Part shown: positions 638-17,429 of the stretch, piece after piece | Position numbering within the stretch: position 1 is the stretch's first letter | Layout: the number at the start of each line of letters is the position of its first letter | Assembly (NCBI GenBank): GCA_040387495.1 | Contig: JAZKDQ010000010.1 | Coordinates: forward strand, 50,749-70,748 | Length of the DNA stretch: 20,000 nt | Source of the DNA: Pseudomonadota bacterium | GTDB taxonomy: Bacteria > Pseudomonadota > Alphaproteobacteria > Paracaedibacterales > CAIOTO01 | Direction: 5' to 3' | Notes under the pieces: generated by a model | The model's input: the letters and a program-made list of their open reading frames with translations, nothing else | Told to the model about the DNA's origin: nothing | The model's database searches: none | Made by a program: the position numbers and the translations under genes

Positions 638-1372
638 TTATGCGAGCAATCCTTGTGATCGACTAGGTAAAACAACGGATTGAGCCCAATAACGTGCTAA
701 GGCATCAATGCTATTTTGAAAAACATCAAAGTCAAAGGGTTTGCAAATATAACCTGCAGCATACGCTTTGTAACATGAAATCATTTCTTGGAAATTAATG
801 CTATTCGTCATGATAATAACGGGGATATCGCTAATATCTCGGTCACGTTTGATTTCGCGTAATACGGTGGCACCATCACGCTTTGGGATGTTTAAATCAA
901 GTAAGATAATATCAGGTCTTGGAAAATCGACGGAAGTGCATTTGTTACGTAAAAAGTCCAAAGCTGCCACACCATCATGTACCGTAAACAAGTTTACAGC
1001 GACTGAGCTCTCAGAAAAAGCACGCCGTGTAAGAAGTTCGTCAGCTGCATCATCCTCAACAAGCAGAATGTGAAGCGTGCTTTCACGATCAGGTATTATG
1101 ACGTCCCCAGATAAGCGTTCAGTTTTCTTTTTAAATGCGGAGAAACCTTGAAAAAAATAACTTGGTTCAACGCCAAGTATTTCTCCTAGTTGGTAAAGTG
1201 TTATTGCAGCAATCCGTGACTGAGCTTGCTCATATTTCTGAATTTGCTGATGCGAAACACCTAGCTTTTCAGCGAGATCTGTTAATGTTAAGCTTAGCTT
1301 TTGACGTTTCTCACGGAGACGTCTCCCGATATAGCTATCAAGATCTTTTTGCTGATCGTTTGAATCTATCAT
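638..1372 (-). CDS. XRE-family HTH fused to a C-terminal response-regulator receiver domain
   Basis: N-terminus IGRRLREKRQKLSLTLTDLAEKLGVSHQQIQKYEQAQSRI is HTH_3-like. C-terminus has ILLVEDD, PDIILLDLNIP (phosphoacceptor Asp), VIIMTNS and YICKP, an Rcp1-like receiver with intact catalytic residues. Confidence 0.92.
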   Translation of the reverse strand: MIDSNDQQKDLDSYIGRRLREKRQKLSLTLTDLAEKLGVSHQQIQKYEQAQSRIAAITLYQLGEILGVEPSYFFQGFSAFKKKTERLSGDVIIPDRESTLHILLVEDDAADELLTRRAFSESSVAVNLFTVHDGVAALDFLRNKCTSVDFPRPDIILLDLNIPKRDGATVLREIKRDRDISDIPVIIMTNSINFQEMISCYKAYAAGYICKPFDFDVFQNSIDALARYWAQSVVLPSRSQGLLA

Positions 1373-2656: not shown

Positions 2657-4111
2657 ATGTCTGAAATAAAGTCTTTTGATGTAACAAAAAAGCAGTATGT
2701 GCAGGACGAAAGCAAATTCGCTCCTGGCGAAAAAAAAGCAATTGCAATTGTATTAACTGGTAATTTTCTTGAATATTTTGATTTGATGCTTTTTAGCCAT
2801 TTGGCCTTTGTTATCTCGCCATATTTTATGCCAAAAGAGGATCCTCTTGTTGCAAAGATGCTTAGTATACTTACGTTTTGTTCTGCATTTGCAGTTAAGC
2901 CATTAGCTGCGTATTTTTGGGGTTATTTGGGAGATAATTTTGGTCGTGTTGTTGTTTTATCTTACACAACAATTATCATGGCGCTGACGTGTATGTTGAT
3001 TCCTAATATACCGCCGTATGCTGAATGGGGAATTTATTCCACAGTAGCGATAATTATGTGCCGTATGCTGCAAGGGTTTAGTTCGGCTGGCGAGTCGAAA
3101 TGTGCCGAGGTATTTATTGTTGAGATTCTGCCTAATCTCCCTAAGATTTTTATAGCATCAGTTCTTGTGCCTATTACATGCGATTTAGGTGGGTTCTTTG
3201 CGGCTATTATTGGCAGCCTATGTCTTGCATTCTCGCCAGAAGAAGGGTGGAAAATTGCATTTTATGTGGGTGCAGCCATTGCATTTTCATCATCACTCTC
3301 GCGATTGAAGTTACGTGAGACGAAAGAGTTTCTTAACAAAATAAATCATTCAAAGAAAACAGAAACGCCGCTAAGGCAATATTTTGAACGTCGAAATTTT
3401 ATTGCTTTGTTAGGTTTGAATTTAATTTGTCCAACTGCATTTTATTTTGCATATAGTGTGTGTTCAGATCTTCTTAAAGAAAAAGTTGGTCTTAGTGCAA
3501 GTACCATTGTTTTCAACAATTCATTTCTTTTATTATCAGAGATCTTTTTTTTATTATTTTGCGCCCGCCTTGCTTCTCGTCATCACCCCTTTTTGATTTT
3601 AAAAGTAAGAACTTATGCATCGTTTGTTTTGATGCCCTTAAGCTTTATTGCCATTTTATTTTATCCGAATCACTTTACGATTTTTATGACACAAGTCATT
3701 GCTATTCTTTCTACGGCTAGCTTTGACCCTGCAGCACCTATTGTTATAAAGTCCTTTGGTATCAGCACGCGTTTTTCAAAATACGCAAAAGCCTCTGCGT
3801 TTGCAAAAGCAATTATGTATCTTTCAACAGGGTACTTAACATTTTACCTTGAAAAGTTATTTGGTCTATGGGGTGTTCTTGGGTTGTTACTTTTCTTCTC
3901 AGGTATTTTTCTCGTGTCATTATATGTGTTTGTGCCCGCCGATAAAATGACAGAGACATATAAAAATTATTTAAACAAAAAAGGACTGTATTTTAGTCAA
4001 TTAGACGATGATAGTGTAGATTTGTCAGAATTTAATAATGATGAAAAAGCTAAAAGCCCCGACTTCAATAAACATCAGCAAAATCTTTTAAAACGTTGGC
4101 TTGCTCAGTAA
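2657..4111 (+). CDS. MFS transporter, metabolite:H+ symporter (ProP-like), divergent paralog
   Basis: GNFLEYFDL in TM1, GYLGDNFGR motif A, CRMLQGFS, RLKLRETKEF after TM6, about 12 hydrophobic segments, acidic C-terminal tail. Confidence 0.9.
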   Translation: MSEIKSFDVTKKQYVQDESKFAPGEKKAIAIVLTGNFLEYFDLMLFSHLAFVISPYFMPKEDPLVAKMLSILTFCSAFAVKPLAAYFWGYLGDNFGRVVVLSYTTIIMALTCMLIPNIPPYAEWGIYSTVAIIMCRMLQGFSSAGESKCAEVFIVEILPNLPKIFIASVLVPITCDLGGFFAAIIGSLCLAFSPEEGWKIAFYVGAAIAFSSSLSRLKLRETKEFLNKINHSKKTETPLRQYFERRNFIALLGLNLICPTAFYFAYSVCSDLLKEKVGLSASTIVFNNSFLLLSEIFFLLFCARLASRHHPFLILKVRTYASFVLMPLSFIAILFYPNHFTIFMTQVIAILSTASFDPAAPIVIKSFGISTRFSKYAKASAFAKAIMYLSTGYLTFYLEKLFGLWGVLGLLLFFSGIFLVSLYVFVPADKMTETYKNYLNKKGLYFSQLDDDSVDLSEFNNDEKAKSPDFNKHQQNLLKRWLAQ

Positions 4112-4307
4112 TTTTGTCCTTTTAGCTCACTTTTCAGTTTTCTATGAGCCATTCTGTTGCTCTACAGAGTTTTGCTGGGGAGAACAAGCCTTAACCTTAA
4201 TTAACTATTCTCCTTTTAGATGAATAACACTACGTGTTTTCAACTTTCATATTGTGCCGGATATGTACTAAATGAAATCTATGAAGCCTGAAAGATGAGG
4301 GTTTAAA

Positions 4308-5699
4308 TTGAGCATTTTTAAATCATTAAGTCGCGAACAAAAAGAAGCCGTTGGATTGCTACAAATCGGCACTTTTCTAGAATATTTTGATTTGATGCTA
4401 TATGTACATATGGCTGTTGTGCTGAATGAGATATTTTTTCCAAAAACTGACCCTCATACCGCATCACTTATCGCGGCTTTTGCTTTTTGTTCTACCTTTG
4501 TGTTAAGGCCATTTGGTGCACTGCTTTTTGGTTATATTGGTGATCGAATTGGACGTAAGACAACGGTTATTATCACCACTATGATGATGTCAACATCATG
4601 TATTATTATGGCAAATTTACCTACTTATGCGCAGATTGGAATTGCAGCAGCTTGGATTGTAACCATTTGTCGTATCGCTCAAGGGGTGTCATCCATGGGT
4701 GAAATTATGGCAGCTAAGGTTTATATGACTGAAATCACAAAGCCACCTGTTCAGTATCCAGCGGTTTCCTTTATAGGTGTTGCTGGCTCAGTAGGCTCTG
4801 TGGCAGCACTTGGTATTGCGACTCTTGTTACAACTGTTGGCTTTAATTGGCGTATTGCATTTTGGATTGGTGCTGGTATTGCGCTAGTTGGATCGATTGC
4901 ACGAACACGACTTCGGGAAACACCTGAATTTGTTGAGCAAATAAATACATTCAGAATGAAAAGAAAAAATAATGAAAATAAAAAAATAAATACAGAAGCA
5001 TTGTTAGATGAGAATTGCAAAATAAATGACAGTCGAATAAATAAAGCGACAATGGGTGCTTTTTCACTTATTAACTATGGATGGCCAATTTGTTTTTATC
5101 TTGTTTACATGTACTTTAATCCCATTTTGAAAAATAAATTTGGGTACACATCTGAAGATATTATATTTCATAATTTCTTATTATCATTAATTCAGCTTGC
5201 GAGAGTCATTGTGATATCTCTGCTCTCTTATCGAATTCATCCATTAAAAGTCTTAAGATTCTTTGGTATAGTATTCTTCTCTTTTGCTGTTTTTTTTCCA
5301 TATCTTTTGAATAGTGTAACTGAGTGGTATCACATCTTTGCTTTACAAACAATAATATCAATTTTCACCATTGGATCCGTTCCTGCTGATGCGATTCTTA
5401 TTAAGCATTTTCCTGTCCTTAGACGAGTTATGTTGGCAGGTGTTCTATTTTCTTTTGCAGGGGCCATTGCATACATAATCACATCGTTTGGACTCGTCTA
5501 TTTGACAGAATTCTTTGGTCATTATGGCCTGTTGGTTATCACCTTGCCTGTCGCGTTGAGTTATCTCTGGGCGGTTAATCATTATGCAGTCCTTGAAGGT
5601 GTTCCGGTACTGAAGATTTCATCGATGTTTTGCTATAGCCATGAGAAAACTTTAGCGGTTAATCAGACGGAATCACAGAAAATTAAAAACAAAGAATAG
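4308..5699 (+). CDS. MFS MHS-family (ProP-like) transporter, array copy 1
   Basis: GTFLEYFD, GDRIGRK, RIAQGVSSMGE, RTRLRETPEF. TTG start aligns with the ATG starts of the paralogs, with GAGG upstream. Confidence 0.93.
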   Translation: MSIFKSLSREQKEAVGLLQIGTFLEYFDLMLYVHMAVVLNEIFFPKTDPHTASLIAAFAFCSTFVLRPFGALLFGYIGDRIGRKTTVIITTMMMSTSCIIMANLPTYAQIGIAAAWIVTICRIAQGVSSMGEIMAAKVYMTEITKPPVQYPAVSFIGVAGSVGSVAALGIATLVTTVGFNWRIAFWIGAGIALVGSIARTRLRETPEFVEQINTFRMKRKNNENKKINTEALLDENCKINDSRINKATMGAFSLINYGWPICFYLVYMYFNPILKNKFGYTSEDIIFHNFLLSLIQLARVIVISLLSYRIHPLKVLRFFGIVFFSFAVFFPYLLNSVTEWYHIFALQTIISIFTIGSVPADAILIKHFPVLRRVMLAGVLFSFAGAIAYIITSFGLVYLTEFFGHYGLLVITLPVALSYLWAVNHYAVLEGVPVLKISSMFCYSHEKTLAVNQTESQKIKNKE

Positions 5700-5738
5700 C
5701 TTGATTTGATTAATTTACTTTAAAAAAGGATGAAAAAA

Positions 5739-7121
5739 ATGAGCATTTTGAAATCACTAAGTCGCGAACAAAAAGAAGCAGTTGGACTTCTTCAAATAGG
5801 TACATTTCTTGAGTACTTCGATTTGATGTTATACGTGCACATGGCTGTTTTATTGAATGAACTCTTTTTTCCAAAAACAGATCCACATACAGCAGCTCTT
5901 TTATCTTCTTTTGCATTTTGTTCTACGTTTATCTTGCGACCATTTGGCGCGCTTGTATTTGGGTATATCGGTGATAACATTGGTAGAAAAGCAACTGTCA
6001 TTATAACAACGATGATGATGTCGACGTCATGTATTGTTATGGCTACTCTTCCTACGTATGCACAAATTGGTATTTCAGCCGCGTGGATTGTTACAATTTG
6101 CCGTATCGTGCAAGGGCTTTCATCCATGGGTGAAGTAATGGGCGCGTATGTTTACATGACTGAAATCACGAAGCCTCCAGTTAGGTACCCTGCCGTTTCT
6201 TTTATTAGCCTTGCGTCGACGTTAGGTGCTTCGGCAGCCCTTGGTGTGGCGACCTTGGTAACAAAATTTGATATTAATTGGAGAAATGCGTTTTGGATTG
6301 GTGCGGGTATTGCTCTTGTTGGCTCTGTGGCTAGGACAAGATTAAGAGAAACACCTGATTTCATTGAAAGCAAAGCAAAAGCAGAAATTAAAAGACAGAA
6401 AAAACTTGATCTCTTAGTGGCCGAGAGTGGTGAAAAAAGAGAAACAGTCGACAGAAAGACTATACTTGCTTTTTTCTTGATCTACTGCGGAAATCCAGTT
6501 TGTTTTTATCTTTTGTATATATTTTTCAATCCAATTTTAATGTCTAAATATGGATTTTCAGCGAGTGATATAATATTTAATAACTTTTTATTAGCAACGA
6601 TAGATATATTCTCATGTCTTTTTCTTACATTTTTAAGTTATAGTATTTATCCACTTAAAATACTAAAATTAAGGTCATCTTGTTTTATTGTTATGTCCTT
6701 ATTGCTTCCTTTTATGATTTCAAATACGACAAGCTACTATCAGATTTTTGCAGTTCAACTTTTTGTGTTAGCAACATCTTTAGATCCTTACCCAGCCAAT
6801 GGTGTGTTTATCAGGCATATCCCTGTTTTAAGGCGTATGACGGCAACTAGTTTTATCTATGCATTAAGTCGCGCCATTATGTATGTCATCACTTCTTTTG
6901 GTCTTGTGTACCTAACGGACAGCCTTGGTTATTATGGTCTTTGGATTGTTGTTATACCCGTTACTGTTGGCTATATGTGGGCTGTAAGGTATTTTGAAAA
7001 ACTAGAAGGCATAAGCACGTCTGGAACTTTTCCAATAGATGGATATGAAGATAAGTATGTAGATTCGGCGCACACAAGCCAGGAATATGCTCCTCATATT
7101 GAAGGCAAGCAAATTGCATGA
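5739..7121 (+). CDS. MFS MHS-family (ProP-like) transporter, array copy 2
   Basis: Same motifs. AGGA at 5727-5730 and paralog alignment (MSILKSL) favour ATG 5739 over 5730. Confidence 0.93.
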   Translation: MSILKSLSREQKEAVGLLQIGTFLEYFDLMLYVHMAVLLNELFFPKTDPHTAALLSSFAFCSTFILRPFGALVFGYIGDNIGRKATVIITTMMMSTSCIVMATLPTYAQIGISAAWIVTICRIVQGLSSMGEVMGAYVYMTEITKPPVRYPAVSFISLASTLGASAALGVATLVTKFDINWRNAFWIGAGIALVGSVARTRLRETPDFIESKAKAEIKRQKKLDLLVAESGEKRETVDRKTILAFFLIYCGNPVCFYLLYIFFNPILMSKYGFSASDIIFNNFLLATIDIFSCLFLTFLSYSIYPLKILKLRSSCFIVMSLLLPFMISNTTSYYQIFAVQLFVLATSLDPYPANGVFIRHIPVLRRMTATSFIYALSRAIMYVITSFGLVYLTDSLGYYGLWIVVIPVTVGYMWAVRYFEKLEGISTSGTFPIDGYEDKYVDSAHTSQEYAPHIEGKQIA

Positions 7122-7155
7122 CCCAAATTCATAAATAACACAGGGAGATTAAAAA

Positions 7156-8547
7156 ATGGGGATATTAAAATCACTAAGTCGCGAACAAAAAGAAGCAGTT
7201 GGTCTTTTACAAGTTGGCACGTTCTTAGAATATTTTGATTTGATGCTATATGTGCATATGGCTGTTTTGCTGAACGAGCTTTTTTTCCCTAAAACCGATC
7301 CGCATACCGCATCTCTTATTGCAGCTTTTGCTTTTTGTTCTACCTTTGTGTTAAGACCATTCGGTGCACTACTTTTTGGTTATATTGGTGATCGTATCGG
7401 GCGAAAAACAACGGTAATTTTAACCACAATGATGATGTCTGTGTCTTGCGTCATTATGGCAAATCTTCCTACCTATGCCCAAGTTGGTATTTCTGCAGCG
7501 TGGATTGTAACCATCTGTCGCATTGTGCAAGGTTTATCATCAATGGGTGAAATTATGGGTGCACAGGTTTATTTAACGGAAATAACAAAACCGCCTGTTC
7601 AATATCCTGCTGTTTCTTTCATAAGTGTTTCTGCCTCATTAGGTGCTGTGGCGGCGCTTGGTATTGCAAGCCTTGTGACGACTATTGGTTTTAATTGGCG
7701 AATAGCATTTTGGATTGGCGCAGGTGTTGCAGTTGTTGGCTCGATTGCACGAACACGTTTGCGCGAAGCGCCTGAATTCCTTGAAAAATTAAATACGCTT
7801 AAAAATAAGAAAAAAGCAATAATTGAAGCAAAAAAAAGTAACAACGAACCAGCTCTTTCAGGGGAAGCAGCATTAGTATCTGAAAAGATCACTGTTGAGA
7901 ATAATGATAATATTGAAAAAATAGGAAAAAAAACAGCTCTGTCTTTTCTTCTTATCTTTTGCGGATGGCCACTTGGTTTTTATTTAACATATATGTATTT
8001 TAATCCAGCTTTGAAACAAAGTTTTGGTTATTCGGCAGAAGATATTATTTTTCATAATCTTATATTGGCATTGATCCATTTTGCACGTTCATTATTTATG
8101 TGCATTATCTCTTATAGGTTTCATCCTTTAAAGATACTAAATTATACTGGGAAATTATTTCTTATTCTAATCATTTTTATGCCATTTCTTCTAAATAGTG
8201 CTACACACTATTATCATATTTTTGTTATACAAACAGCAATTGTATTATTTTCTATTGGGTCTATGCCTGGCAATGCCATCTTTGTTAAGCATTTCCCTGT
8301 TCTCAAACGAGTCACGGCAACGAGTGTGCTATCTTCGATGACGCGCGCGGTCGTGTATATCCTTACATCATTTGGTCTAGTTTATTTGACAGAGTTCTTT
8401 GGTTATTATGGATTGTGGGTAATTACGTTGCCTGTCACATTAAGTTACTTATGGGCAATAAATCACTATGCAGCTCTTGAGGGTATGCAGCTTACAAAAA
8501 TCTCATCATTGTTTGCACGCAAGGATAAAGATATGCATCTCATGTAA
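7156..8547 (+). CDS. MFS MHS-family (ProP-like) transporter, array copy 3
   Basis: Same motifs, GGAG SD upstream. The frame continues 15 codons beyond the TAA to a second stop at 8593-8595. Confidence 0.93.
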   Translation: MGILKSLSREQKEAVGLLQVGTFLEYFDLMLYVHMAVLLNELFFPKTDPHTASLIAAFAFCSTFVLRPFGALLFGYIGDRIGRKTTVILTTMMMSVSCVIMANLPTYAQVGISAAWIVTICRIVQGLSSMGEIMGAQVYLTEITKPPVQYPAVSFISVSASLGAVAALGIASLVTTIGFNWRIAFWIGAGVAVVGSIARTRLREAPEFLEKLNTLKNKKKAIIEAKKSNNEPALSGEAALVSEKITVENNDNIEKIGKKTALSFLLIFCGWPLGFYLTYMYFNPALKQSFGYSAEDIIFHNLILALIHFARSLFMCIISYRFHPLKILNYTGKLFLILIIFMPFLLNSATHYYHIFVIQTAIVLFSIGSMPGNAIFVKHFPVLKRVTATSVLSSMTRAVVYILTSFGLVYLTEFFGYYGLWVITLPVTLSYLWAINHYAALEGMQLTKISSLFARKDKDMHLM

Positions 8548-8623
8548 GGAAGCCAGAGCAAACCTTATCAAAATGAAGATAAAAGAATTGCATAAAAATA
8601 ACTTAATTTTAAATAAGGATTAA

Positions 8624-10015
8624 ATGATGAGCATTTTTAAATCACTAAATCGCGAGCAAAAAGAAGCCGTCGGTTTGCTGCAGATAGGCACATTTCTCGA
8701 ATATTTTGATTTAATGCTGTATGTGCATATGGCTGTTTTGCTAAATGAGATATTTTTTCCAAAAACGGATCCTCATACAGCATCGCTTATAGCGGCCTTC
8801 GCCTTTTGCTCAACGTACGTTTTGCGCCCCTTTGGCGCTATTTTATTTGGTTATATTGGCGATCATATTGGGCGAAAAACAACTGTTATTATTACAACGT
8901 TAATGATGTCGGTATCGTGTGCCGTTATGGCGAATTTACCCACCTACGCGCAAATTGGTATTACCGCAACGTGGATTATTACCATATGTCGCATTGTGCA
9001 AGGATTATCATCAATGGGTGAAATCATGTGTGCAAAGGTTTACCTGACTGAAATAACAAAGGCGCCAGAGCAATATCCTGCTGTTTCAATGATTACTGTT
9101 GCTTCATCATTAGGTGCTGTGGCGGCGCTTGGTGTTGCAACACTTGTTACAACAGTCGGGTTTAATTGGCGAATTGCTTTTTGGATTGGGGCAGGTATTG
9201 CAGTTATAGGATCTATCGCCCGAACGCGATTACGTGAAACACCTGAGTTTCTAGCGAAGATGTATGAACGCAAGAATAAAGCAGAAGCAAAAGCAGAAGC
9301 AAATGGAATAGAAAAATCTGTCTTTTCTAATGATAAAATTAAAAAAAGAACAATGTTTGCCTTTTTTGTAACATCATGTGGCGGACCTTTAACCTTTTAT
9401 ATTGTGTATATGCATTTCAATCCTCTCTTAAAACATTCATTTGCATACTCTTCTGAAAATATCATTCTGCATAATCTATATTTATCTTTGATACAAGTAT
9501 CAGTATGCATACTTTTCGCTGTGATGAGTTATCGAATTCATCCATTAAGAATAATGAAACTTGGAATTTCGTGCCTTGTAGGCTTGATTCTTATGCTTCC
9601 AATTATAATCCCTAACATAACGCATCCATATCAACTGTTTGCTTTGCAATCAATGTTCCTGCTTCTTTTCTTGTCAGATACGCCAGCCGCATCTATTTTT
9701 ATAAAACAATTTCCAGTACTAAGGCGTGTAACAGCAACAAGCTTTTTATATGCACTCGCGAGAGCGCTTATGTATCCAATCACATCATTTGGTCTTATTT
9801 ATTTAACAAATTTCTTTGGGATTTATGGGCTCTGGTTGATTATGTTGCCAATTGCTGGCGGATATTTATGGGCTACCAATCACTATGCAAGTCTTGAAGG
9901 CGTTACAGGCTTTGAAATTTTTTCAATGTTTGGAGAAAAGGATAAACCCTCAGAAGGTCTCAAACAAAACCATAAAGAAGAAAATAATCAGACCGTAAAT
10001 AAAAAATTGGCTTAA
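8624..10015 (+). CDS. MFS MHS-family (ProP-like) transporter, array copy 4
   Basis: Same motifs. AAGGA upstream of ATGATG (start 8624 or 8627). Confidence 0.93.
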   Translation: MMSIFKSLNREQKEAVGLLQIGTFLEYFDLMLYVHMAVLLNEIFFPKTDPHTASLIAAFAFCSTYVLRPFGAILFGYIGDHIGRKTTVIITTLMMSVSCAVMANLPTYAQIGITATWIITICRIVQGLSSMGEIMCAKVYLTEITKAPEQYPAVSMITVASSLGAVAALGVATLVTTVGFNWRIAFWIGAGIAVIGSIARTRLRETPEFLAKMYERKNKAEAKAEANGIEKSVFSNDKIKKRTMFAFFVTSCGGPLTFYIVYMHFNPLLKHSFAYSSENIILHNLYLSLIQVSVCILFAVMSYRIHPLRIMKLGISCLVGLILMLPIIIPNITHPYQLFALQSMFLLLFLSDTPAASIFIKQFPVLRRVTATSFLYALARALMYPITSFGLIYLTNFFGIYGLWLIMLPIAGGYLWATNHYASLEGVTGFEIFSMFGEKDKPSEGLKQNHKEENNQTVNKKLA

Positions 10016-10046
10016 CTTTAAGCTGCTTTAAGAAAGGAAGAAAAAA

Positions 10047-11393
10047 ATGGGCATTTTAAAATCACTAAATCGCGAACAAAAAGAAGCCGTAGGTTTACTG
10101 CAAATAGGCACGTTTCTAGAATATTTTGATTTGATGTTATATGTGCATATGGCTGTGTTGTTGAATGAATTATTTTTTCCTCAGACTGATCCTCATACAG
10201 CAGCGCTGCTCACTGCCTTTGCGTTTTGTTCAACCTATGTATTACGTCCCTTTGGCGCTCTTGTCTTTGGATATATTGGCGATAACGTTGGTCGAAAAAC
10301 AACAGTGATTTTGACCACTATGATGATGTCGGTATCATGTATTATTATGGCGAATCTGCCAACGTACGCTCAGATTGGAATTACAGCAACGTGGGTAATT
10401 ACCATCTGTCGTGTCATGCAAGGACTATCGTCTATGGGTGAAGTTATGAGCGCTCAAGTTTATATGACGGAGATCACAAAGCCACCTATTCAATATCCTG
10501 CGGTTTCTTTTATATCTGCGGCTTGTGCAGCTGGTGGGGTTGCGGCACTTGGCGTTGCAACCCTTGTTACAACAGCAGGTTTTAACTGGCGCATTGCTTT
10601 TTGGATCGGGGCAGTAATTGCACTTGTTGGCTCCGTTGCGAGAACGCGGCTTAGAGAAACACCTGAATTTGTTGAAAAATCAAATGCATATAAGAACAGA
10701 AAAAGCGTAAGACTTGCGGCGGAAAAAAGTGGAAAAACGTTTGCAGAATCATTTAATGATACTGAGCATGAAAAGATAAAAATAAAAAATGTGGTTTCTT
10801 TTTTTGCAGCTAATTGTGGCTGCCCACTTTGTTTTTATTTAATATATATATACTTTAATCCAACGTTAAAAAACACCTTTGGATATGCATCGGAAGATAT
10901 TATATTTCATAACTTTATATTGGTAATACTTCATTTTGCAACTTTGTTGTTTTTAGCTATTACTTCCTACAAAATTCATCCCTTGAAAATATTGCGAATT
11001 ATTGGTTGTATTTTCCTTGGATTAGCTGTTTGCTTGCCGTCTCTCGTGAATTGGGCAACAAGTTATTATCATATTTTTGCCCTGCAGGCGGCAATTGTGT
11101 TCTTTTGTCTTAATACCAGTCCTGCCGAAGCTATCTTCATCAAGCATTTCCCCGTCCTTAAACGGATGACGGCGACCAGTCTTCTTTACTCTCTTACCCG
11201 TGCAATTACATATATAATCACGTCCTTTGGCTTGGTTTATTTGACAGAGTATTTTGGTCATTATGGTCTGTGGCTGATCATGCTGCCGGTTACATTAAGC
11301 TATTTGTGGGCAATTAATCATTACGCACTTCTTGAAAATGTTAACTTACCAAAACTTACAGCAATCTTTCGCAAGAAGAGTTTTGTGGGGTAA
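10047..11393 (+). CDS. MFS MHS-family (ProP-like) transporter, array copy 5
   Basis: Same motifs, AAGGA SD upstream, shorter C-terminal tail. Confidence 0.93.
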   Translation: MGILKSLNREQKEAVGLLQIGTFLEYFDLMLYVHMAVLLNELFFPQTDPHTAALLTAFAFCSTYVLRPFGALVFGYIGDNVGRKTTVILTTMMMSVSCIIMANLPTYAQIGITATWVITICRVMQGLSSMGEVMSAQVYMTEITKPPIQYPAVSFISAACAAGGVAALGVATLVTTAGFNWRIAFWIGAVIALVGSVARTRLRETPEFVEKSNAYKNRKSVRLAAEKSGKTFAESFNDTEHEKIKIKNVVSFFAANCGCPLCFYLIYIYFNPTLKNTFGYASEDIIFHNFILVILHFATLLFLAITSYKIHPLKILRIIGCIFLGLAVCLPSLVNWATSYYHIFALQAAIVFFCLNTSPAEAIFIKHFPVLKRMTATSLLYSLTRAITYIITSFGLVYLTEYFGHYGLWLIMLPVTLSYLWAINHYALLENVNLPKLTAIFRKKSFVG

Positions 11394-11421
11394 TGCCAGT
11401 TACAAAATCATTTTAAATTGG

Positions 11422-11467
11422 ATGCTGCTTGGTTTTGTTTATATGCCAGGTAGCATTTCTATGTTTT
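11422..11467 (+). terminator. Hairpin, possible terminator of the transporter array
   Basis: ATGCTGCTTGG (11422-11432) pairs with CCAGGTAGCAT (11446-11456) using two G-U pairs; T-rich tail; 28 bp after the copy 5 stop. Confidence 0.5.
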
Positions 11468-11469
11468 CA

Positions 11470-11828
11470 TTATTTAGAACTATCCATTAATATTGCTTCA
11501 ATTTCATCATGGCCTAATCGTGTTACCTGAGCCCTTGCAGCGTAGCCGAAAATATCTTTTTTGCGTGCGTCTGCGCTTGCTTTAATCAAGCTAATCGCAA
11601 TATTTTTATATCCTTTAATAGCCAGCCACCATCAACGCAGTGAGGCTCATATGAATTAACTCTGGGTCATCTTATGTGTGTTTCATTAGAGCTCACTCTA
11701 AGCCTTACATTAGCGTTAACTGGTGCATTTAGAACTAAACCTGAGTTGCAATTGTTATGTTTTTCTAGCACAGGAAATAATAAATCCATTTTGTTGGGTG
11801 GTTTCGGTTTATATAATTCTATCTTCAT
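11470..11828 (-). pseudogene. Frameshifted ankyrin-repeat protein remnant
   Basis: Manual minus-strand translation gives LTALM, a 1-nt frameshift near 11625, then AIKGYKNIAISLIKASADARKKDIFGYAARAQVTRLGHDEIEAILMDSSK* (TAA 11472-11470), matching the ankyrin consensus. Upstream short frame 11828-11667 contains LLFPVLEKHNNCNSGLVLNAPVNANVR, a possible degenerate repeat. Confidence 0.72.
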
Positions 11829-12053
11829 CTTATTTATCTATTCATGCCGGTGGTTTTATAGGCTATTGCCCGTTGATTATTTGAAATTAAGTTAAACTCA
11901 TACCTGCTAATAGTAGGGCAATTCCACTAGTTGTTAATCTGCGTAGAAATTACCTAGATGATTGCATGTTTATGCCATATGAAAATGAGGCTAATATTCA
12001 ATTTTGATTTAATTTAAAATTATGTCATCTTTCGCTATGCAGTATTAAATAGT

Positions 12054-15000
12054 TTGCTCACTTTAAAGTTTATAGCAAGACGTATATATAAAGGTGGCAT
12101 CATAATAAGCGTTAGAAAATTGCAAAATCTGAATTCTAATCATTTGGCTGCAATAAAAGGCAAAAGATTTACACGCCCAGAAATTGATATTATTGCATGT
12201 TTGTTATGCGGGCGTGCTGCTATGATTCCTTCTCTTTTATCAATTTCTTCACGTACGTTTGAAACGTATATACATAATATCATGCTTAAAATTGAATGTG
12301 ATTCGTATGAGGGGATTGTTGATTTTATTGAACAATCAGGCAAGGTGTTGTTTACAAAAGCACATTATCAAAAACTTGTTGTCAATGTCTTGTTTGAAAG
12401 ATGTTTAAAATCCATTGCAAATTTCACGCGAGAGCAATCGGGTATATGTACAATCTGGTATGAACCAAATGCATCTATACACCACATGGATATTATTCAT
12501 AAATTAATAAAACATATTAAGATGGCTGGCATTGAAACAATATTAAAGAGAAAAAGTGAGGATGAATTTAGGCATTTTGGTTCGACCGCAGTTCAAGCGA
12601 ACAATGAATTAAACCAGTACTCACTCACGGTGCTAAGCAAAGAAGAACATCAATCATTGTATCTAATAGATAATCTGGAAATTAGTGAGCAAGAAGAATA
12701 TGCCTCAGAGGATTCTATTTTCATTCGCTTGGATAGCCTAATCAATGATGTACCCATGCAAAATCTAAAGACACATAAGACTAATGTTTATGCTTTGTCT
12801 GTTTATTATCAAGGCGTTTTTGGAATTTTGAGAATGATATATTCCAACGAAAACTTTGAGGCGCAAATTAGTGAGTTTCATGTACAGTATGCGTCTTTAT
12901 TACGCAACGACCTAAAACCTGTAAGTAATTATGAATCATATAAAAAGTTGAAAATCAAAAAAATGAGAAGTCAATCTAGCTACGTTAAAAACCACTCGAT
13001 AAAATCAAAAACATATGCATTCTTACGACACAAAAGTGTTCAGGCAGTTTTTTTTGCTATTACCTTTTTTGGGATGTTATTTTTATTTTCTGGCTATAAG
13101 GGTGATGATGCAGAGAATGGAGAATATAATAATAAGTATATACGTTCAAATCTACGCATACCTGCGGAGTCAGTGTTCTTAGGCAGACCAACGCTTGTAA
13201 GAAGGATAAAAGAGCATTTTTCACAACATATAAATAGTAAGCCAATAATTACTGTCGTTGGTCTTGTTGGTATTGAGGGATCAGGTAAAACCACTCTTGC
13301 GCGTGCCTATGCAAAAACCTTAAGCAATGCTTCTGTTGTATGGGAAATTAATGCAGAAACACACGATAGTCTGGTGGATTCATTTAAGAACCTAGCGCAC
13401 GCTTTGGCTCAAACAAAAGAAACTAAAAGTGAATTATCGAGTATTCAGCGCATACAAAATGTTGATGAGATGGTAAGAAGAACAGCTATATTTGTTGCAA
13501 AGCATCTTCAAAAGCGCCCGAATTGGTTGCTTATTTATGATAATGTTGAATCATTTTCAAATCTTGAACATTTTTTCCCGCATGACGTAGATTGTTATGG
13601 GGCTGGAAAAGTTATTATTACAACGCGGGATCAAAGTGAAGGACGTGCTGAATATTTTAATGCAGATTCAATTGTTTATGTTGATGCATTAAACATGAGT
13701 GAAACTTTAACGTTATTCACTAAAATGACATATAACACCGAAGCATATGTTTTTTCACGAGAAAAAGAGAAGAAACTTATTCGTTTTCTTTCTAATATTC
13801 CGTCATACCCGCTTGATGTATCTATTGCATCATATTATATCAAGAATTCTAATATCACATGTGAAGCGTACTTAGAACGTATGAAGGATAATACGAAAGA
13901 TTTTGAGAATGCACAAACTGAATTTCCAAAAGACTCAAGCACATACACAAAAACACGATATAACATCACTACTCTTTCTATTAAGCGGCTTATTGATACA
14001 GAGCCTGAGTTTAAGAATTTACTAATGTTGCTAAGTCTTGTTGCGGCTGAAGATATCCCTAGAGCATTATTTGAATCGTATCAAGATCCCGTTCTTATTG
14101 ACCGTTTTATTTTTTGTCTTAAAAAATATGCATTTGTGCTGGGGAAGATTTCATCAAAGCATGATTGTGAAGCAACATTCTCGATTCATCGAAGCACACA
14201 GAAAATTATTAAGGATTTTTTATTAAGTACAAATGAGAAAGGTGATACAGAAAAAACGATACACGCATTTGCGCATCTTATTCAGAACTTTTCAGAAACT
14301 TATATTTCGAAAAAACCAGGAGAAATGCTTAATTTAGTTACGCACATTAATGAGTTCCTGCAAAATACTAATAGAATGAAGTTGGATGCTGCTAACAAAG
14401 AACAAATTAAACAAAATTTATATTATGCGCTAGGATATGCATACAAACGATTCTCACGGAATCTATTATTAGAAAAAGAATGTTTTGCAAAAGCATATGC
14501 AAGTCAGGCGCAAACACAACATATTCCAAACCATAAATTGACTGTGATGCTTAATGATTTAGCATCGATCTGTGTTGATTTGTCTCATAATGATGATGCT
14601 ATTTTATATGCACAAAAAAGCATTGATTTATGCAAGTCTCTGCCTGAAAAAACACTTGTTTCTGCGGATTGCCTGCGTATTATTGGGCTAGCATACCTTC
14701 TTAAAAATGATTTTGACAATGCAAAACTTCATTTTAATAAGGGCATCTATTTGCTGTCATCTCTAGATGCGGCCGTTCGAAAGGAAGCAGAGGCATCATT
14801 ATACGCCTTGCTTGGATCGCTTTACAGTGTGACGTATATTAATGGGGAGCGTGCTGAAGACGGAATTGGCTACGGACACAAAGCAGTTAATGTTATGAAT
14901 GCTGAATTGCAGTTGTATACGAAAACAGCACCGAAAGTAAAACCAGAAAAGATCTCATGTGAAGTAGCGCGTGTAAAAGCATCGCTTGGGGATGTGTATT

Positions 15001-15659
15001 GTCATTTTGGTGATTATAAAAGGGCGTATGAGCTGGGGTATAGAGACGTTCAATATATCATCGATAATCAGTTAGATACATGTTCACATGATTTGTTGAA
15101 AATCTACATGGCAATTGGTATGGGAGAAATTCATTTACGAGAAAAGTATCTTGTTAAATCAAAAAAGAAATTAACAACAGTCATTAAAGACGCAGAAGAT
15201 TTAGTGGGAACTACCAATATGCTGCTTTTATTTCCACGTGTGTTTAGTGCGGAAACACATATTCGGTTGAATGAACTTGATGCCGCATATAATGATTGTT
15301 TAGCTGCATTTAAGACTGAACAAAAAGAATGTCCTAATTATTCAAAACTGATCTTGGCAACGGCGTATTATCATGCAGCCATTATAAAATATAAACAGGG
15401 TGATTTTTCGAAATCATTTGAACATTTTTCGACGTTTTTTGAACATGCTAAAATGGTATGCAAAGCAATTCTAAGTAAAAAGGCATACAAAGTGCTTGAA
15501 AAAAAGAAGGTTTTTGATATGGATCGTGTTGCGAATAACAGCATGAATGATGAGGCAATTAAACCTTACTTCAAGCACGCTGCGGTGGCATTTAAGGCTA
15601 TTTATGGGGATGAGCATGCTTTCATTAAGGATTATGTGAATATTTACGGTCACATCTAA
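12054..15659 (+). CDS. LuxR-like HTH / transmembrane helix / NB-ARC (STAND) NTPase / TPR-like repeat protein
   Basis: FTRPEIDIIACLLCG...LSISSRTFETYIHNIMLKI (about 12168-12300) is GerE/LuxR-like; hydrophobic VQAVFFAITFFGMLFLFSGY (13038-13097); FLGR...; Walker A GIEGSGKT (13269-13292); Walker B WLLIYDNVE (13524-13550); VIITTR; YPL; TPR-like helices (YYALGYAY, LRIIGLAY, ASLGDVY). Start codon uncertain. Confidence 0.88.
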   Translation: MLTLKFIARRIYKGGIIISVRKLQNLNSNHLAAIKGKRFTRPEIDIIACLLCGRAAMIPSLLSISSRTFETYIHNIMLKIECDSYEGIVDFIEQSGKVLFTKAHYQKLVVNVLFERCLKSIANFTREQSGICTIWYEPNASIHHMDIIHKLIKHIKMAGIETILKRKSEDEFRHFGSTAVQANNELNQYSLTVLSKEEHQSLYLIDNLEISEQEEYASEDSIFIRLDSLINDVPMQNLKTHKTNVYALSVYYQGVFGILRMIYSNENFEAQISEFHVQYASLLRNDLKPVSNYESYKKLKIKKMRSQSSYVKNHSIKSKTYAFLRHKSVQAVFFAITFFGMLFLFSGYKGDDAENGEYNNKYIRSNLRIPAESVFLGRPTLVRRIKEHFSQHINSKPIITVVGLVGIEGSGKTTLARAYAKTLSNASVVWEINAETHDSLVDSFKNLAHALAQTKETKSELSSIQRIQNVDEMVRRTAIFVAKHLQKRPNWLLIYDNVESFSNLEHFFPHDVDCYGAGKVIITTRDQSEGRAEYFNADSIVYVDALNMSETLTLFTKMTYNTEAYVFSREKEKKLIRFLSNIPSYPLDVSIASYYIKNSNITCEAYLERMKDNTKDFENAQTEFPKDSSTYTKTRYNITTLSIKRLIDTEPEFKNLLMLLSLVAAEDIPRALFESYQDPVLIDRFIFCLKKYAFVLGKISSKHDCEATFSIHRSTQKIIKDFLLSTNEKGDTEKTIHAFAHLIQNFSETYISKKPGEMLNLVTHINEFLQNTNRMKLDAANKEQIKQNLYYALGYAYKRFSRNLLLEKECFAKAYASQAQTQHIPNHKLTVMLNDLASICVDLSHNDDAILYAQKSIDLCKSLPEKTLVSADCLRIIGLAYLLKNDFDNAKLHFNKGIYLLSSLDAAVRKEAEASLYALLGSLYSVTYINGERAEDGIGYGHKAVNVMNAELQLYTKTAPKVKPEKISCEVARVKASLGDVYCHFGDYKRAYELGYRDVQYIIDNQLDTCSHDLLKIYMAIGMGEIHLREKYLVKSKKKLTTVIKDAEDLVGTTNMLLLFPRVFSAETHIRLNELDAAYNDCLAAFKTEQKECPNYSKLILATAYYHAAIIKYKQGDFSKSFEHFSTFFEHAKMVCKAILSKKAYKVLEKKKVFDMDRVANNSMNDEAIKPYFKHAAVAFKAIYGDEHAFIKDYVNIYGHI

Positions 15660-15693
15660 ATATTAAATGTTATTAATAAGCTATTAATATTTA
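15657..15693. promoter_or_regulatory. AT-rich inverted repeat containing TTAA-N7-TTAA
   Basis: TAAATATTAA (15657-15666)/TTAATATTTA (15684-15693); TTAA-taagcta-TTAA at 15673-15687. Confidence 0.25.
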
Positions 15694-15737
15694 TGTTTTA
15701 TTGATAATTAAATGAAATGTAATATTGGAATTGTGAA

Positions 15738-17429
15738 ATGCATATGTTCACTTTAAATCTTCCCCGGACTTTGCTTCTTGGAGGCACTCTAATTATCCTC
15801 AATGAGAATTCTCTATATGCGAAAGTGGAGCTCGGTGCGAAATTAATTGCACAAGCTGAACAAAATGATCTTGGCTCTACAGCAAAAGCAGGAAATTCAG
15901 AGAGCACACCTGTTTTAAACGAGAAAAACCCAATACAAGTTGTGGATGCAAAAGCAACGAGTGATGATCCGGAAAAGATGGTTAGCACAGATACAGCGCC
16001 TGATTCGACAGCAATTTCAAAGCTAAAAATAGCTGATGACCATCGAAACTACCGTACAAATTTTGGGTATAAAGCTTCGCAAAAAGAAGCGCTTCGTTTA
16101 TATGAAGAAATAATGAATGATAAAAAAGTCAGCCCAGATGTTCGTGCGCGCGGAAAAATTAATTATGCAGATATATATATAAATGCTGGTTGGCTTAATG
16201 ATACCGTAAAACGTGAGCAGCGTAATGCTGAAGCTTTGCGTCTTTTCAATGAAGTGATTCATGAAATGGATATATCGCCTGATCTAAAAGGATGGGCAAA
16301 ACGCCATTTGTCAGATCTTTATTCAAGTAATAATTTTGATATGGACCCTGTTGAGGCGCGAAAGAAATCTGTTTCTTTGCTTGAGGAAGTATGTGTCGAT
16401 CCTGGTGTTGGGGCAGAAACAAAAGGACGCGCCAAACTATCGCTTGCCGGTCGTTATGTTTCTAAGGATGGACGGAAAGATTTAGGATTAACAGAGGAAG
16501 AAGGTAAAGCAAAGGCAATCGTTTTAATGAATGAAATTGTTAGCGATACAAAAGCGCGCCCTGATTTGCGGGCAGAAGCCAAAATAGGTTTGGCTAATCA
16601 TTCATCTGAAGAAGATTATTTTTATAAAGAAAAGAAACTAAAATTATATAAAGAAGTTATTGCTGATAAAGCAATTACACCTGTGATGCGTGCAAATATA
16701 AAAGCAAGACTTGCTAATTTGTACGTTTGGAGGAATTTCAATGTGAAAAAAAGCGAGGGAAGTACGATTGGTTTAAATTTGATGGAAGAAGCAGCTAATG
16801 AACCATCTTTGCCTATTAAGGAGAGGTTGGAATATAAAAGACAGTTGAAAAATTGGTATCGTCAGTTTTCTGACATGTTGCCAAGTGAAGCGAATGCAAA
16901 AGCACTTAAAATTTCGCCTGAAATTGTTGAAGAAAGCCGCGTTGATGCAAAAGAATATTTTAAGGCTAGGTTGGATTTAGCAAATGATTATTCACTCAAT
17001 AGTTACAAGCAAAAACGGGCCGTTGCTACAGCTGCGGCGCATAAGATTTTTAATGAATTGTTAACAGACAAAACGTTGCCTGTGGATGATAGGATAAAAG
17101 TTAGAAAAGATTTGGCGCAAAGCTATCTTTGGGGCTGGGGTGGTTTTGAACCAGAAGCTGGCAAAGATGTAAAAATAACTATTCTTAACCTTTATAATGA
17201 AATTTTAAACGATCCAGAACTAAAACAAGAAAAATGGTTTGAAACGAAATGCACTATAGCAGATATGTATCGTGAACATCAGGCCGAACGATTAGGCATG
17301 AAAAAAAGCGAAGCAAAAACTGAAAAGTTGCGCTTATATAATGAATTGATTGAAGACAAAAAACTAACGCCAGAGCAGAAAAAGAAGGTGAAGAAAATTA
17401 TAGAAGAGTTGGAAAAACCTGGTGCTTAG
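15738..17429 (+). CDS. Helical repeat protein (ten 40-49 aa repeats, TPR/Sel1-like), possibly exported
   Basis: Recurring 30-aa core, e.g. ALRLYEEIMNDKKVSPDVRARGKINYADIY and KLKLYKEVIADKAITPVMRANIKARLANLY. Weak signal-like N-terminus (RTLLLGGTLIIL...LYA) followed by a polar linker. Confidence 0.85.
   Translation: MHMFTLNLPRTLLLGGTLIILNENSLYAKVELGAKLIAQAEQNDLGSTAKAGNSESTPVLNEKNPIQVVDAKATSDDPEKMVSTDTAPDSTAISKLKIADDHRNYRTNFGYKASQKEALRLYEEIMNDKKVSPDVRARGKINYADIYINAGWLNDTVKREQRNAEALRLFNEVIHEMDISPDLKGWAKRHLSDLYSSNNFDMDPVEARKKSVSLLEEVCVDPGVGAETKGRAKLSLAGRYVSKDGRKDLGLTEEEGKAKAIVLMNEIVSDTKARPDLRAEAKIGLANHSSEEDYFYKEKKLKLYKEVIADKAITPVMRANIKARLANLYVWRNFNVKKSEGSTIGLNLMEEAANEPSLPIKERLEYKRQLKNWYRQFSDMLPSEANAKALKISPEIVEESRVDAKEYFKARLDLANDYSLNSYKQKRAVATAAAHKIFNELLTDKTLPVDDRIKVRKDLAQSYLWGWGGFEPEAGKDVKITILNLYNEILNDPELKQEKWFETKCTIADMYREHQAERLGMKKSEAKTEKLRLYNELIEDKKLTPEQKKKVKKIIEELEKPGA

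Follow-up and report, generated by a model that had tools for sequence, protein, structure and literature searches.

A STAND protein family of intracellular alphaproteobacteria with a predicted membrane helix between a LuxR-type DNA-binding module and an NB-ARC/TPR switch

In this study, we characterised computationally the product of one gene (open reading frame [ORF] P0001; Table 1) in a 20,000-nucleotide stretch of a genome of the alphaproteobacterial order Paracaedibacterales (assembly GCA_040387495.1, contig JAZKDQ010000010.1, positions 50,749 to 70,748; hereafter the window). By profile matches and structure models, we confirmed a domain chain made of a LuxR/GerE helix-turn-helix (HTH), a putative, degenerate TIR-like alpha/beta domain, a linker rich in basic residues, a single hydrophobic helix, an NB-ARC module and tetratricopeptide repeats (TPR). 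A first-pass annotation of this DNA had described the order as HTH, a region of about 230 residues, a basic stretch with a hydrophobic helix, NB-ARC and TPR-like repeats, and all elements of it that could be checked hold. Such a chain places a predicted membrane span inside a protein of the class of signal transduction ATPases that have numerous domains (STAND). We see about an even chance that it is a ToxR-like, membrane-spanning one-component regulator with its NB-ARC/TPR sensor in the periplasm, where host ATP is available.

Table 1 Features of the STAND gene and its product (residue numbers count from the first TTG)
Feature	Residues	Position in window	Strand	Basis
Whole ORF (P0001)	1201 aa	12054..15659	+	TTG start, coordinates including the stop codon
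LuxR/GerE-type HTH	33-104	12150..12365	+	Fold and family profile; GerE below cut-off
Degenerate TIR-like alpha/beta domain (putative)	125-268	12426..12857	+	AlphaFold2 beta-alpha fold, relative L031, ESM Atlas
Disordered basic linker	269-326	12858..13031	+	pLDDT 37-55; last 30 aa with 10 Lys/Arg and 0 Asp/Glu
Single predicted transmembrane helix	327-349	13032..13100	+	19-residue Kyte-Doolittle (KD-19) value 1.95, AlphaFold2, conserved position
NB-ARC module (NBD, HD1, WHD)	367-740	13152..14273	+	Pfam, NCBIfam, motifs, Foldseek
TPR sensor region (kinesin-light-chain type)	741-1201	14274..15656	+	TPR_12, profile matches, AlphaFold2

The hydrophobic helix, which the first-pass annotation had placed at residues 329-348 behind a basic stretch, is the feature that sets this protein apart. 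Its KD-19 hydropathy peaks at 1.95 over residues 329-347, within an uncharged run from 328 to 348, and the only further region of the query reaching KD 1.6 is the buried core of the HTH. In an AlphaFold2 (AF2) model of residues 1-370 the helix spans residues 327-347, with block values of the predicted local distance difference test (pLDDT) of 74-93. In the full-length model (pLDDT 85.4) it stands isolated (model residues 306-325), flanked by linkers of pLDDT below 50 and not packed in a domain. Across the family, a segment of KD >= 1.6 lies 46-72 residues ahead of Walker A in 117 of 121 stored proteins, a set that counts the query twice and in which P0013, P0025, P0041 and P0111 miss it. Among 27 distinct family ORFs taken from loci of the order, of the class and of named metagenome-assembled genomes (MAGs), 26 likewise have the helix, and L010 (KD 1.38) does not; of 116 additional representatives of 50% clusters, each at least 330 aa long, about 107 have it. 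These representatives derive from the best 150 matches to the N-terminal module, 125 of which were classified (the other 25 were already in the first set); nine of the 125 were shorter than 330 aa. Ninety-eight of the 116 scored positive for helix and Walker A, a figure reduced to 97 by a false call inside the NB-ARC of P0137. Another 10 have the helix without the Walker A pattern, six have Walker A without a helix of KD >= 1.6 (two of them borderline, with KD 1.57 and 1.40) and two have neither. Absence of the helix from homologues, which had been named in advance as grounds for discarding a membrane span, is therefore not what we observed. Since the query holds only two regions of KD >= 1.6 and the distance from Walker A is fixed across the family, the helix is beyond chance. 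Its sequence is variable (major-residue frequency 0.30), as expected of a lipid-facing span. No second conserved hydrophobic segment was found across the homologues, and no N-terminal signal peptide in the query. The segment is conserved in homologues and looks like a membrane span.

The charges around the helix point to a single-span topology with the N-terminus inside and the C-terminus outside. In the 15-residue flanks of 116 helix-bearing homologues, we counted 3.84 Lys/Arg before the helix versus 2.40 after it, with a net charge of +3.25 versus +0.66. Upstream Lys/Arg exceed downstream ones in 85 homologues, fall below them in 11 and tie in 20, and the corresponding Wilcoxon p of 5e-14 overstates the evidence, as the sequences are related. 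The query itself has 10 Lys/Arg and no Asp/Glu in the 30 residues before the helix, and four Lys/Arg and five Asp/Glu in the 30 after it. Under the established positive-inside rule, this asymmetry would leave the HTH and TIR-like part in the cytoplasm and export the NB-ARC/TPR part. A DNA-binding domain as conserved as the P-loop domain (mean major-residue frequency 0.65 versus 0.62) must also be cytoplasmic. Of the ToxR-like topology suggested in the first-pass annotation, the direction (HTH in, ATPase and TPR out) is thus favoured by the flanking charges, while the topology as such stays a prediction from sequence.

At the N-terminus, that annotation had proposed a LuxR-like HTH at about residues 39-95. 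Pfam GerE (PF00196) matches the query at residues 40-89, with 17.7 bits for the whole protein and 21.2 bits for the N-terminal part against a cut-off of 23.5. Among relatives, GerE matches 19 of 20 N-terminal regions (E <= 1, best E 2e-16), 17 of the 19 relatives scanned singly surpass the 23.5-bit cut-off, and a profile of the relatives' N-terminal regions matches GerE (1fse) with E 2.3e-8. Structurally, residues 33-104 are modelled with pLDDT above 90 (N-terminal AF2 model of residues 1-370 from an 89-row alignment, pLDDT 79.9). They superimpose on VqmA (7dwm) with Z 10.6 and a root-mean-square deviation of 1.5 Å over 68 residues (VIA-align), as well as on DegU (7x1k, Z 10.6), GerE (1fse, Z 9.7) and DNA-bound NarL (1je8, Z 9.4), which gives the four-helix GerE/NarL-type fold. 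In view of this fold and of the relatives' matches, the low GerE score reflects divergence of this copy and not a false match. The LuxR-like assignment is therefore upheld, and a mismatch with the LuxR/GerE profile, the other outcome said beforehand to count against the annotation, is contradicted by the family profile and the fold. Conservation within the protein is highest in the HTH, followed by the nucleotide-binding domain (NBD).

Downstream of the helix, the proposal of an NB-ARC with intact Walker A and B followed by TPR-like repeats was confirmed by Pfam and by motif conservation. Pfam NB-ARC (PF00931) matches residues 381-565 with 33.8 bits against a cut-off of 23.5, and the best NCBIfam match is the NB-ARC part of FxSxx_TPR (residues 372-738, E 1e-31, under its cut-off). 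The module carries hhGR (375-379), Walker A (403-414), Walker B of the form hhhhDN (490-499), TTR (523-525), a GxP-like motif (582-590) and an MHD-like IHR (709-716, His at 712). In 89 sequences, G406, G409, G411, K412, T413, T414, D496, N497, T523/T524 and H712 are invariant or at least 90% conserved. A Foldseek search with the NB-ARC/TPR part returned 6mfv (E 3.2e-12) and Apaf-1 (3sfz and 1z6t, about 1e-8), with further fold matches to CED-4, ZAR1, RPP1, Sr35 and Avs3 (8dgc); a phmmer search of the whole protein against PDB sequences gave no match. In the TPR region, modelled mostly with pLDDT above 90, Pfam TPR_12 (PF13424) matches residues 832-896 (35.4 bits, cut-off 30.1), and profile matches include KLC, LGN and the TPR region of AfsR (E 1e-16 for AfsR). 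The conservation of HTH and NBD, together with the invariance of the motifs, indicates that DNA binding and nucleotide binding are both under selection. As judged by these conserved motifs, the NB-ARC module is selected to bind nucleotide, wherever it is located.

Between the HTH and the helix, the first-pass annotation had recorded some 230 residues without assignment. The region is indeed present, and what was missed is the putative TIR-like domain within it: the AF2 model shows residues 105-326 as a long helix, then an alpha/beta domain and finally a disordered, basic linker. A fold search with the alpha/beta domain returned PurE (Z 7.8), a prokaryotic SEFIR domain (5y8f, Z 7.5), B12-binding domains and TIR-STING (9lmq, Z 6.4), scores in the range of common folds such as generic three-layer sandwiches. 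Foldseek of the N-terminal model against the PDB gave no match at E <= 1e-3, and Pfam found no TIR domain in the query. The TIR link comes from the aligned homologous domain of L031, a member from another GTDB family, which matches Pfam TIR_2 (PF13676) with 33 bits (cut-off 28), and from an ESM Atlas language-model search with residues 120-300, whose best named matches are TIR_2 clusters (0.90-0.91) and serve as a lead. A comparison by hhalign of family with outgroup N-termini gave a probability of 0.3. Of the folded parts, this domain shows the lowest conservation (major-residue frequency 0.33), and it is missing from P0022, P0027, P0036, P0096 and the L008 protein. Across residues 125-268 no polar position is invariant or reaches 90% conservation, and the conserved catalytic glutamate of TIR NADases, its position judged by eye, has no conserved counterpart. 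We therefore read residues 125-268, from model and alignment, as a putative degenerate, non-catalytic TIR-like scaffold.

To place the protein in its family, we compared a profile of the N-terminal module with 1.84 billion cluster representatives and found 904 proteins with E <= 1e-30, a number that rises to 1735 with E <= 1e-10. The family thus comprises at least 904 clusters at 50% identity, from bacteria living inside protists. Named matches come from Paracaedimonas, Odyssella, Paracaedibacter and Caedibacter, in agreement with the mention in the first-pass annotation of similar proteins in Holosporales-type symbionts. Its remark that these are uncharacterised also stands. No description of a LuxR-TM-NB-ARC-TPR family (TM, transmembrane helix) was found in a literature search that covers subscription journals and supplements poorly. 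The accessible parts of the STAND surveys PMC7159879 and PMC13581612 do not describe one, and in the accessible part of a Holosporales review (PMC11909080) the terms NB-ARC, LuxR and tetratricopeptide each have zero occurrences. Within the family, P0130, P0154, P0155, P0221 and P0193 have the GerE domain, the module and the helix and lack the NB-ARC. The C-terminal part of P0130 carries TPR_16/TPR_19/TPR_2 and that of P0155 is TPR-like by ESM Atlas features, while P0154, P0221 and P0193 show no Pfam match downstream of the helix. Judged by these architectures, the N-terminal module with its helix behaves as a unit combined with variable C-terminal sensors. A constant, presumably cytoplasmic output and helix joined to changing sensors is what transmembrane one-component regulators usually show. 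Outside the family, a 401-genome sample of the phylum yielded only three weak NB-ARC-only matches (E about 1e-10). These outgroup proteins (L033-L035) are soluble, of the architecture (HTH_3)-TIR_2-NB-ARC-DUF7779-TPR, are encoded in genomes of 3.8-5 Mb and have no hydrophobic segment (KD maximum 0.88-0.97). Given this architecture, the family looks derived from HTH-TIR-NB-ARC-TPR proteins through gain of a LuxR HTH and the helix.

An ATP switch outside the inner membrane is conceivable only because these bacteria live in the cytoplasm of a host, whose ATP they take up across the periplasm by means of the ATP/ADP translocase TLC. The source genome (1.66 Mb, 20 contigs, 99.9% complete) has a single copy of the STAND gene and four matches to the TLC family. 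Within the order, TLC occurs in 59 of 62 genomes and in all 49 high-quality ones, and this near-universal presence leaves the order without discriminating power. At the level of the class, in an even sample of 401 genomes (TLC threshold E <= 1e-20), the family occurs in 13 and TLC in 51. All 13 carriers, which span 11 GTDB families, are TLC-positive, and none of the 350 TLC-negative genomes carries the family. The host-ATP idea, and with it the ToxR-like topology, has passed one falsification test, in that family and TLC co-occur. That the protein senses host nucleotides, as the first-pass annotation suggested, has to this extent survived, and the sensing itself stays conjectural. Separately, the second of two adjacent TLC genes in the source genome (G000:C8:54749-56164) contains one in-frame TAA and is a possible pseudogene copy.

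Taken together, these observations would fit the following course of events. The N-terminal 326 residues, with HTH and TIR-like scaffold, would lie in the cytoplasm, the helix would act as a signal anchor, and the NB-ARC/TPR part of about 850 residues would be on the periplasmic side. A ligand on the TPR and ATP on the NB-ARC would release autoinhibition and allow oligomerisation outside the inner membrane (cf. MalT, GutR, AfsR). Clustering of the helices would then let the TIR-like scaffolds and LuxR HTHs, both in the cytoplasm, assemble on DNA. ATP itself could form part of a signal meaning "inside a host cell". In its full form, in which a truly periplasmic NB-ARC/TPR half would be the first extracytoplasmic NLR-type (nucleotide-binding, leucine-rich repeat type) ATP switch, reading host ATP and a TPR ligand as an inside-host signal and passing it through one helix to the TIR-like scaffold and LuxR HTH, we hold this proposal tentatively and think its prospects somewhat worse than even.

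Several observations weigh against a periplasmic sensor. The strongest point against one that is obligatorily extracytoplasmic is the existence of members without the helix, about 3% of the family. P0137, P0162, P0188, P0194 and P0230 have GerE at about residues 25-80 and NB-ARC from residues 324-331 with nothing hydrophobic between, P0111 has the same domain chain and is likewise helix-less, and the helix is borderline in P0013, P0041, P0192 and P0229. In a FastTree phylogeny of the NB-ARC region (72 rows: 60 of 190 helix-bearing members chosen at random, six helix-less, three borderline and three outgroup), the helix-less rows do not group together, and their scatter implies at least 3-4 changes, in a tree with many weakly supported forks and a midpoint root. 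They look like repeated losses in this tree, and their persistence implies that the NB-ARC/TPR part can apparently work or persist in the cytoplasm. To our knowledge, no P-loop STAND is known outside the cytoplasm. The post-helix part, with a Cys content of 0.92%, counts from 0 to 21 and a parity of 50 even versus 66 odd, appears from its composition to show no sign of adaptation to an oxidising compartment; genes for DsbB and DsbA-like proteins are present. Cys parity as a test for periplasmic location was dropped as uninformative, since the crude signal-peptide class of the same genome, used as control, showed no even bias either (102 versus 120). Two family genes, in L008 (G459) and L010 (G460), lie in MAG bins in which no TLC was found. 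Their contigs measure 8.3 kb and 6.5 kb, the MAGs are labelled Gammaproteobacteria and Lactobacillales, and the bins may be incomplete or the contigs mis-binned. The TLC association may also reflect shared ancestry or gene exchange among intracellular alphaproteobacteria. Further, the gene is accessory and dispensable, not core: it occurs in 33 of 62 genomes and 13 of 20 genera of the order, at 0 to 17 matching places per genome. In G004 (C53; L013/L036), a sister genome from the same genus, the orthologue is cut to a 436-aa ORF with helix and NB-ARC (query residues 297-724). This reduced gene is syntenic with window positions 10047-17429, between the same transporter and 563-aa protein genes as in the window, and its locus holds no HTH/TIR-like or TPR remnant. 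In G001 and G003 there is no trace of a family gene beside the orthologue of the 563-aa protein gene. Lastly, a crude comparison of k-mers with shuffles revealed no shared operator-like motif upstream of 25 family genes.

The ATP problem disappears, and both the helix-less members with the same chain and the cytoplasm-like Cys content find a place, if both halves are cytoplasmic and the helix is a non-spanning anchor or oligomerisation helix of a GutR/AfsR-like regulator localised at the membrane. The segment itself speaks for a span: its 19-25 residues are hydrophobic throughout (KD up to 3.4) and bordered by charges, show no amphipathic character and are too few to form a hairpin, and the charge asymmetry across it would go unexplained. 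We judge a wholly cytoplasmic protein improbable. Regulated proteolysis, in which an outside ligand and ATP would trigger cleavage in or near the helix and free a soluble HTH/TIR-like regulator, shares the topology evidence of the tethered regulator. It draws on the long disordered linker (about 58 residues) ahead of the helix and on short stand-alone N-terminal ORFs among the relatives. A single-sequence search for short relatives of the N-terminal module gave one match, a 224-aa fragment. Regulated proteolysis accords poorly with a family that has no protease gene conserved beside it, with the lack of a conserved cleavage motif in linker and helix (entropy about 3 bits) and with the fact that ToxR and CadC-type regulators act while tethered, and here too we put the chances low.

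The suggestion in the first-pass annotation of a defence NLR fared less well than its one-component alternative. Such a conflict or defence STAND would derive from TIR-NB-ARC-TPR immune sensors and keep their mode of action: on recognition of an invader by the TPR, oligomerisation would either switch on the TIR-like domain or let the helix damage the membrane, and the HTH would serve autoregulation only. The ancestry is compatible with such a role, in that the closest non-family relatives in the phylum sample are the soluble TIR_2-NB-ARC proteins of the outgroup and L031 retains a TIR_2 domain above the Pfam cut-off; so is the patchy distribution with tandem paralogues, as in NLR expansions. 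According to the accessible part of a recent survey (Nature 2026, PMC13581612), defence and non-defence STAND clades are intermixed. The neighbourhood includes some defence genes, namely AbiEii in L008, REase_II in L007 and MzaA in L002, but strong PADLOC matches number only three among 63 neighbouring proteins, none of them lies in the window, and the query itself gave P-loop-level matches only (E 0.013 or higher). A TIR-like domain with the lowest conservation of all folded parts, without conserved polar residues and absent in some members, combined with an HTH that is conserved best, is not what an effector of this kind would lead one to expect, and the predicted topology turns the sensor away from the cytoplasm, the location of phage proteins. 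With no PADLOC match to the query and no consistent defence neighbourhood, we regard a defence role as unlikely. A secreted effector acting in the host was dropped as a candidate, since no signal peptide is present and the LuxR HTH equals the P-loop domain in conservation.

Compared with known systems, the protein combines parts that occur separately elsewhere. ToxR, CadC and TcpP have a cytoplasmic N-terminal DNA-binding domain, one helix and an extracytoplasmic C-terminal sensor, and self-associate while tethered. This is the layout predicted for the query, from which they differ by an OmpR-type winged HTH in place of a LuxR-type one and by small periplasmic sensors without nucleotide in place of an 850-aa ATP switch with TPR. 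MalT/LAL regulators also use a LuxR-type HTH. In them, however, it sits at the C-terminus and is paired with an NTPase of the MalT clade. The query has the reverse order and an NB-ARC, which together with a TPR_MalT score of only 20.2 bits (cut-off 45) places it outside the MalT/LAL group. MalT/LAL (E. coli, actinomycetes) and GutR (Bacillus subtilis) resemble the query as STAND activators needing inducer and ATP, and differ in being soluble; in such soluble regulators inducer and ATP release autoinhibition, with ATP binding, not hydrolysis, as the activating step (accessible part of PMC10936776). AfsR has been presented as an NLR-like transcription factor turned on by ATP binding (accessible parts of PMC10936776 and bioRxiv 10.64898/2026.09.02.748808), and an MHD-type latch operates in it (same part of bioRxiv 10.64898/2026.09.02.748808). 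AfsR and the "large SARP" regulators of Streptomyces (8k60, 8jke) share the order of N-terminal DNA-binding domain, NB-ARC/NOD and TPR; unlike the query, AfsR is soluble, has a SARP module (OmpR-type winged HTH with BTAD) and lacks both TIR-like domain and membrane helix. No SARP domain, and neither Trans_reg_C nor BTAD, was found in the query (Pfam, E <= 1), and NCBIfam AfsR scores 12.9 bits versus 1430.

On the side of immunity, bacterial TIR-NB-ARC-TPR STANDs (the outgroup L033-L035 and Avs-type proteins) share the (HTH)-TIR-NB-ARC-TPR order and the NB-ARC clade, but the outgroup proteins have no membrane helix, an XRE-type HTH or none, and a TIR domain that Pfam recognises. The PH0952-type STAND with TPR sensor (6mfv), Apaf-1, CED-4 and plant NLRs, the best structural matches of the NB-ARC/TPR part, are all cytoplasmic and lack both an N-terminal LuxR HTH and a membrane span ahead of the NTPase. 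Toll-like receptors have a repeat sensor outside, one helix and a TIR-type domain inside, and signal by induced self-association. The query would share this layout by analogy only. The receptors run in the opposite chain order (type I versus type II), use leucine-rich repeats and not TPR, and have no NTPase or DNA-binding domain, and we claim no homology past the TIR-like fold. STAND/NLR proteins are regarded as cytoplasmic switches in all domains of life, and a family of at least 900 clusters with a span between output and ATP switch calls this rule into question. If the topology is right, the family would be a directly testable case of ATP-dependent signalling in the bacterial periplasm, a candidate mechanism by which obligate intracellular bacteria tell "inside a host" from "outside", and a natural fusion of Toll-like-receptor-like and NLR-like innate-immune layouts for transcription control. 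If periplasmic sensing is true as well, a Toll-like-receptor layout with an NLR engine would be possible only in energy-parasitic intracellular bacteria. Should the topology be wrong, the few STAND transcription factors known so far (MalT, GutR, AfsR) are still joined by a membrane-anchored class.

The start of the gene is uncertain between two TTG codons. The one at 12054 sits immediately after a stop codon, and the gene probably begins at the second TTG, at 12120 (residue 23), and would then encode 1179 aa. This rests on the closest homologue, P0003 (72% identical), whose length agrees with the later start and whose Walker A lies 22 residues earlier than in the query, on the ESM Atlas record, which starts at residue 23, and on the pLDDT below 50 of residues 1-20 in the AF2 model.

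Upstream of the STAND gene, the window holds six tandem paralogous genes for transporters of the major facilitator superfamily (MFS; 2657-11393, + strand), with products of 484, 463, 463, 463, 463 and 448 aa matching MFS_1 and Sugar_tr. Here ProP-like importers have expanded locally, as is typical of host-dependent bacteria. Starting 78 nt past the STAND stop codon, the gene at 15738-17429 (+) encodes a 563-aa exported repeat protein of no Pfam family, beyond which an SBP_bac_5 gene lies on the opposite strand. No neighbour gene is conserved across 10 family loci, which fits a self-contained sensor-regulator. A promoter scan gave nothing above shuffles, and Rfam found no RNA family in the window. 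The 660-nt gap before the gene (11394-12053) has no long ORF, only one of 73 aa at 11674-11895, and holds an imperfect 21-nt inverted repeat (11876-11896 / 12003-12023). In the 78-nt gap, a CtrA-box-like TTAA-N7-TTAA stands at 15673-15687; the pattern occurs 4 times in the window versus 2.2 expected, which is not above chance.

At other loci, three tandem family paralogues lie on one strand of a Caedibacter sp. 38-128 contig (L011, 15-10402), interrupted by one unrelated 255-aa ORF on the other strand. In L008 (51-3890), the AbiEii-type nucleotidyltransferase gene (PADLOC E 5e-88) adjoins the family member, and the locus also encodes a protein of 1029 aa that is of low complexity, rich in Lys and Glu, and has a hydrophobic segment at its N-terminus. 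Near the start of the window (638-1372, - strand), a gene encodes a 244-aa protein that carries an XRE-type HTH_3 at the N-terminus and a receiver domain at the C-terminus; response regulators usually have the opposite order.

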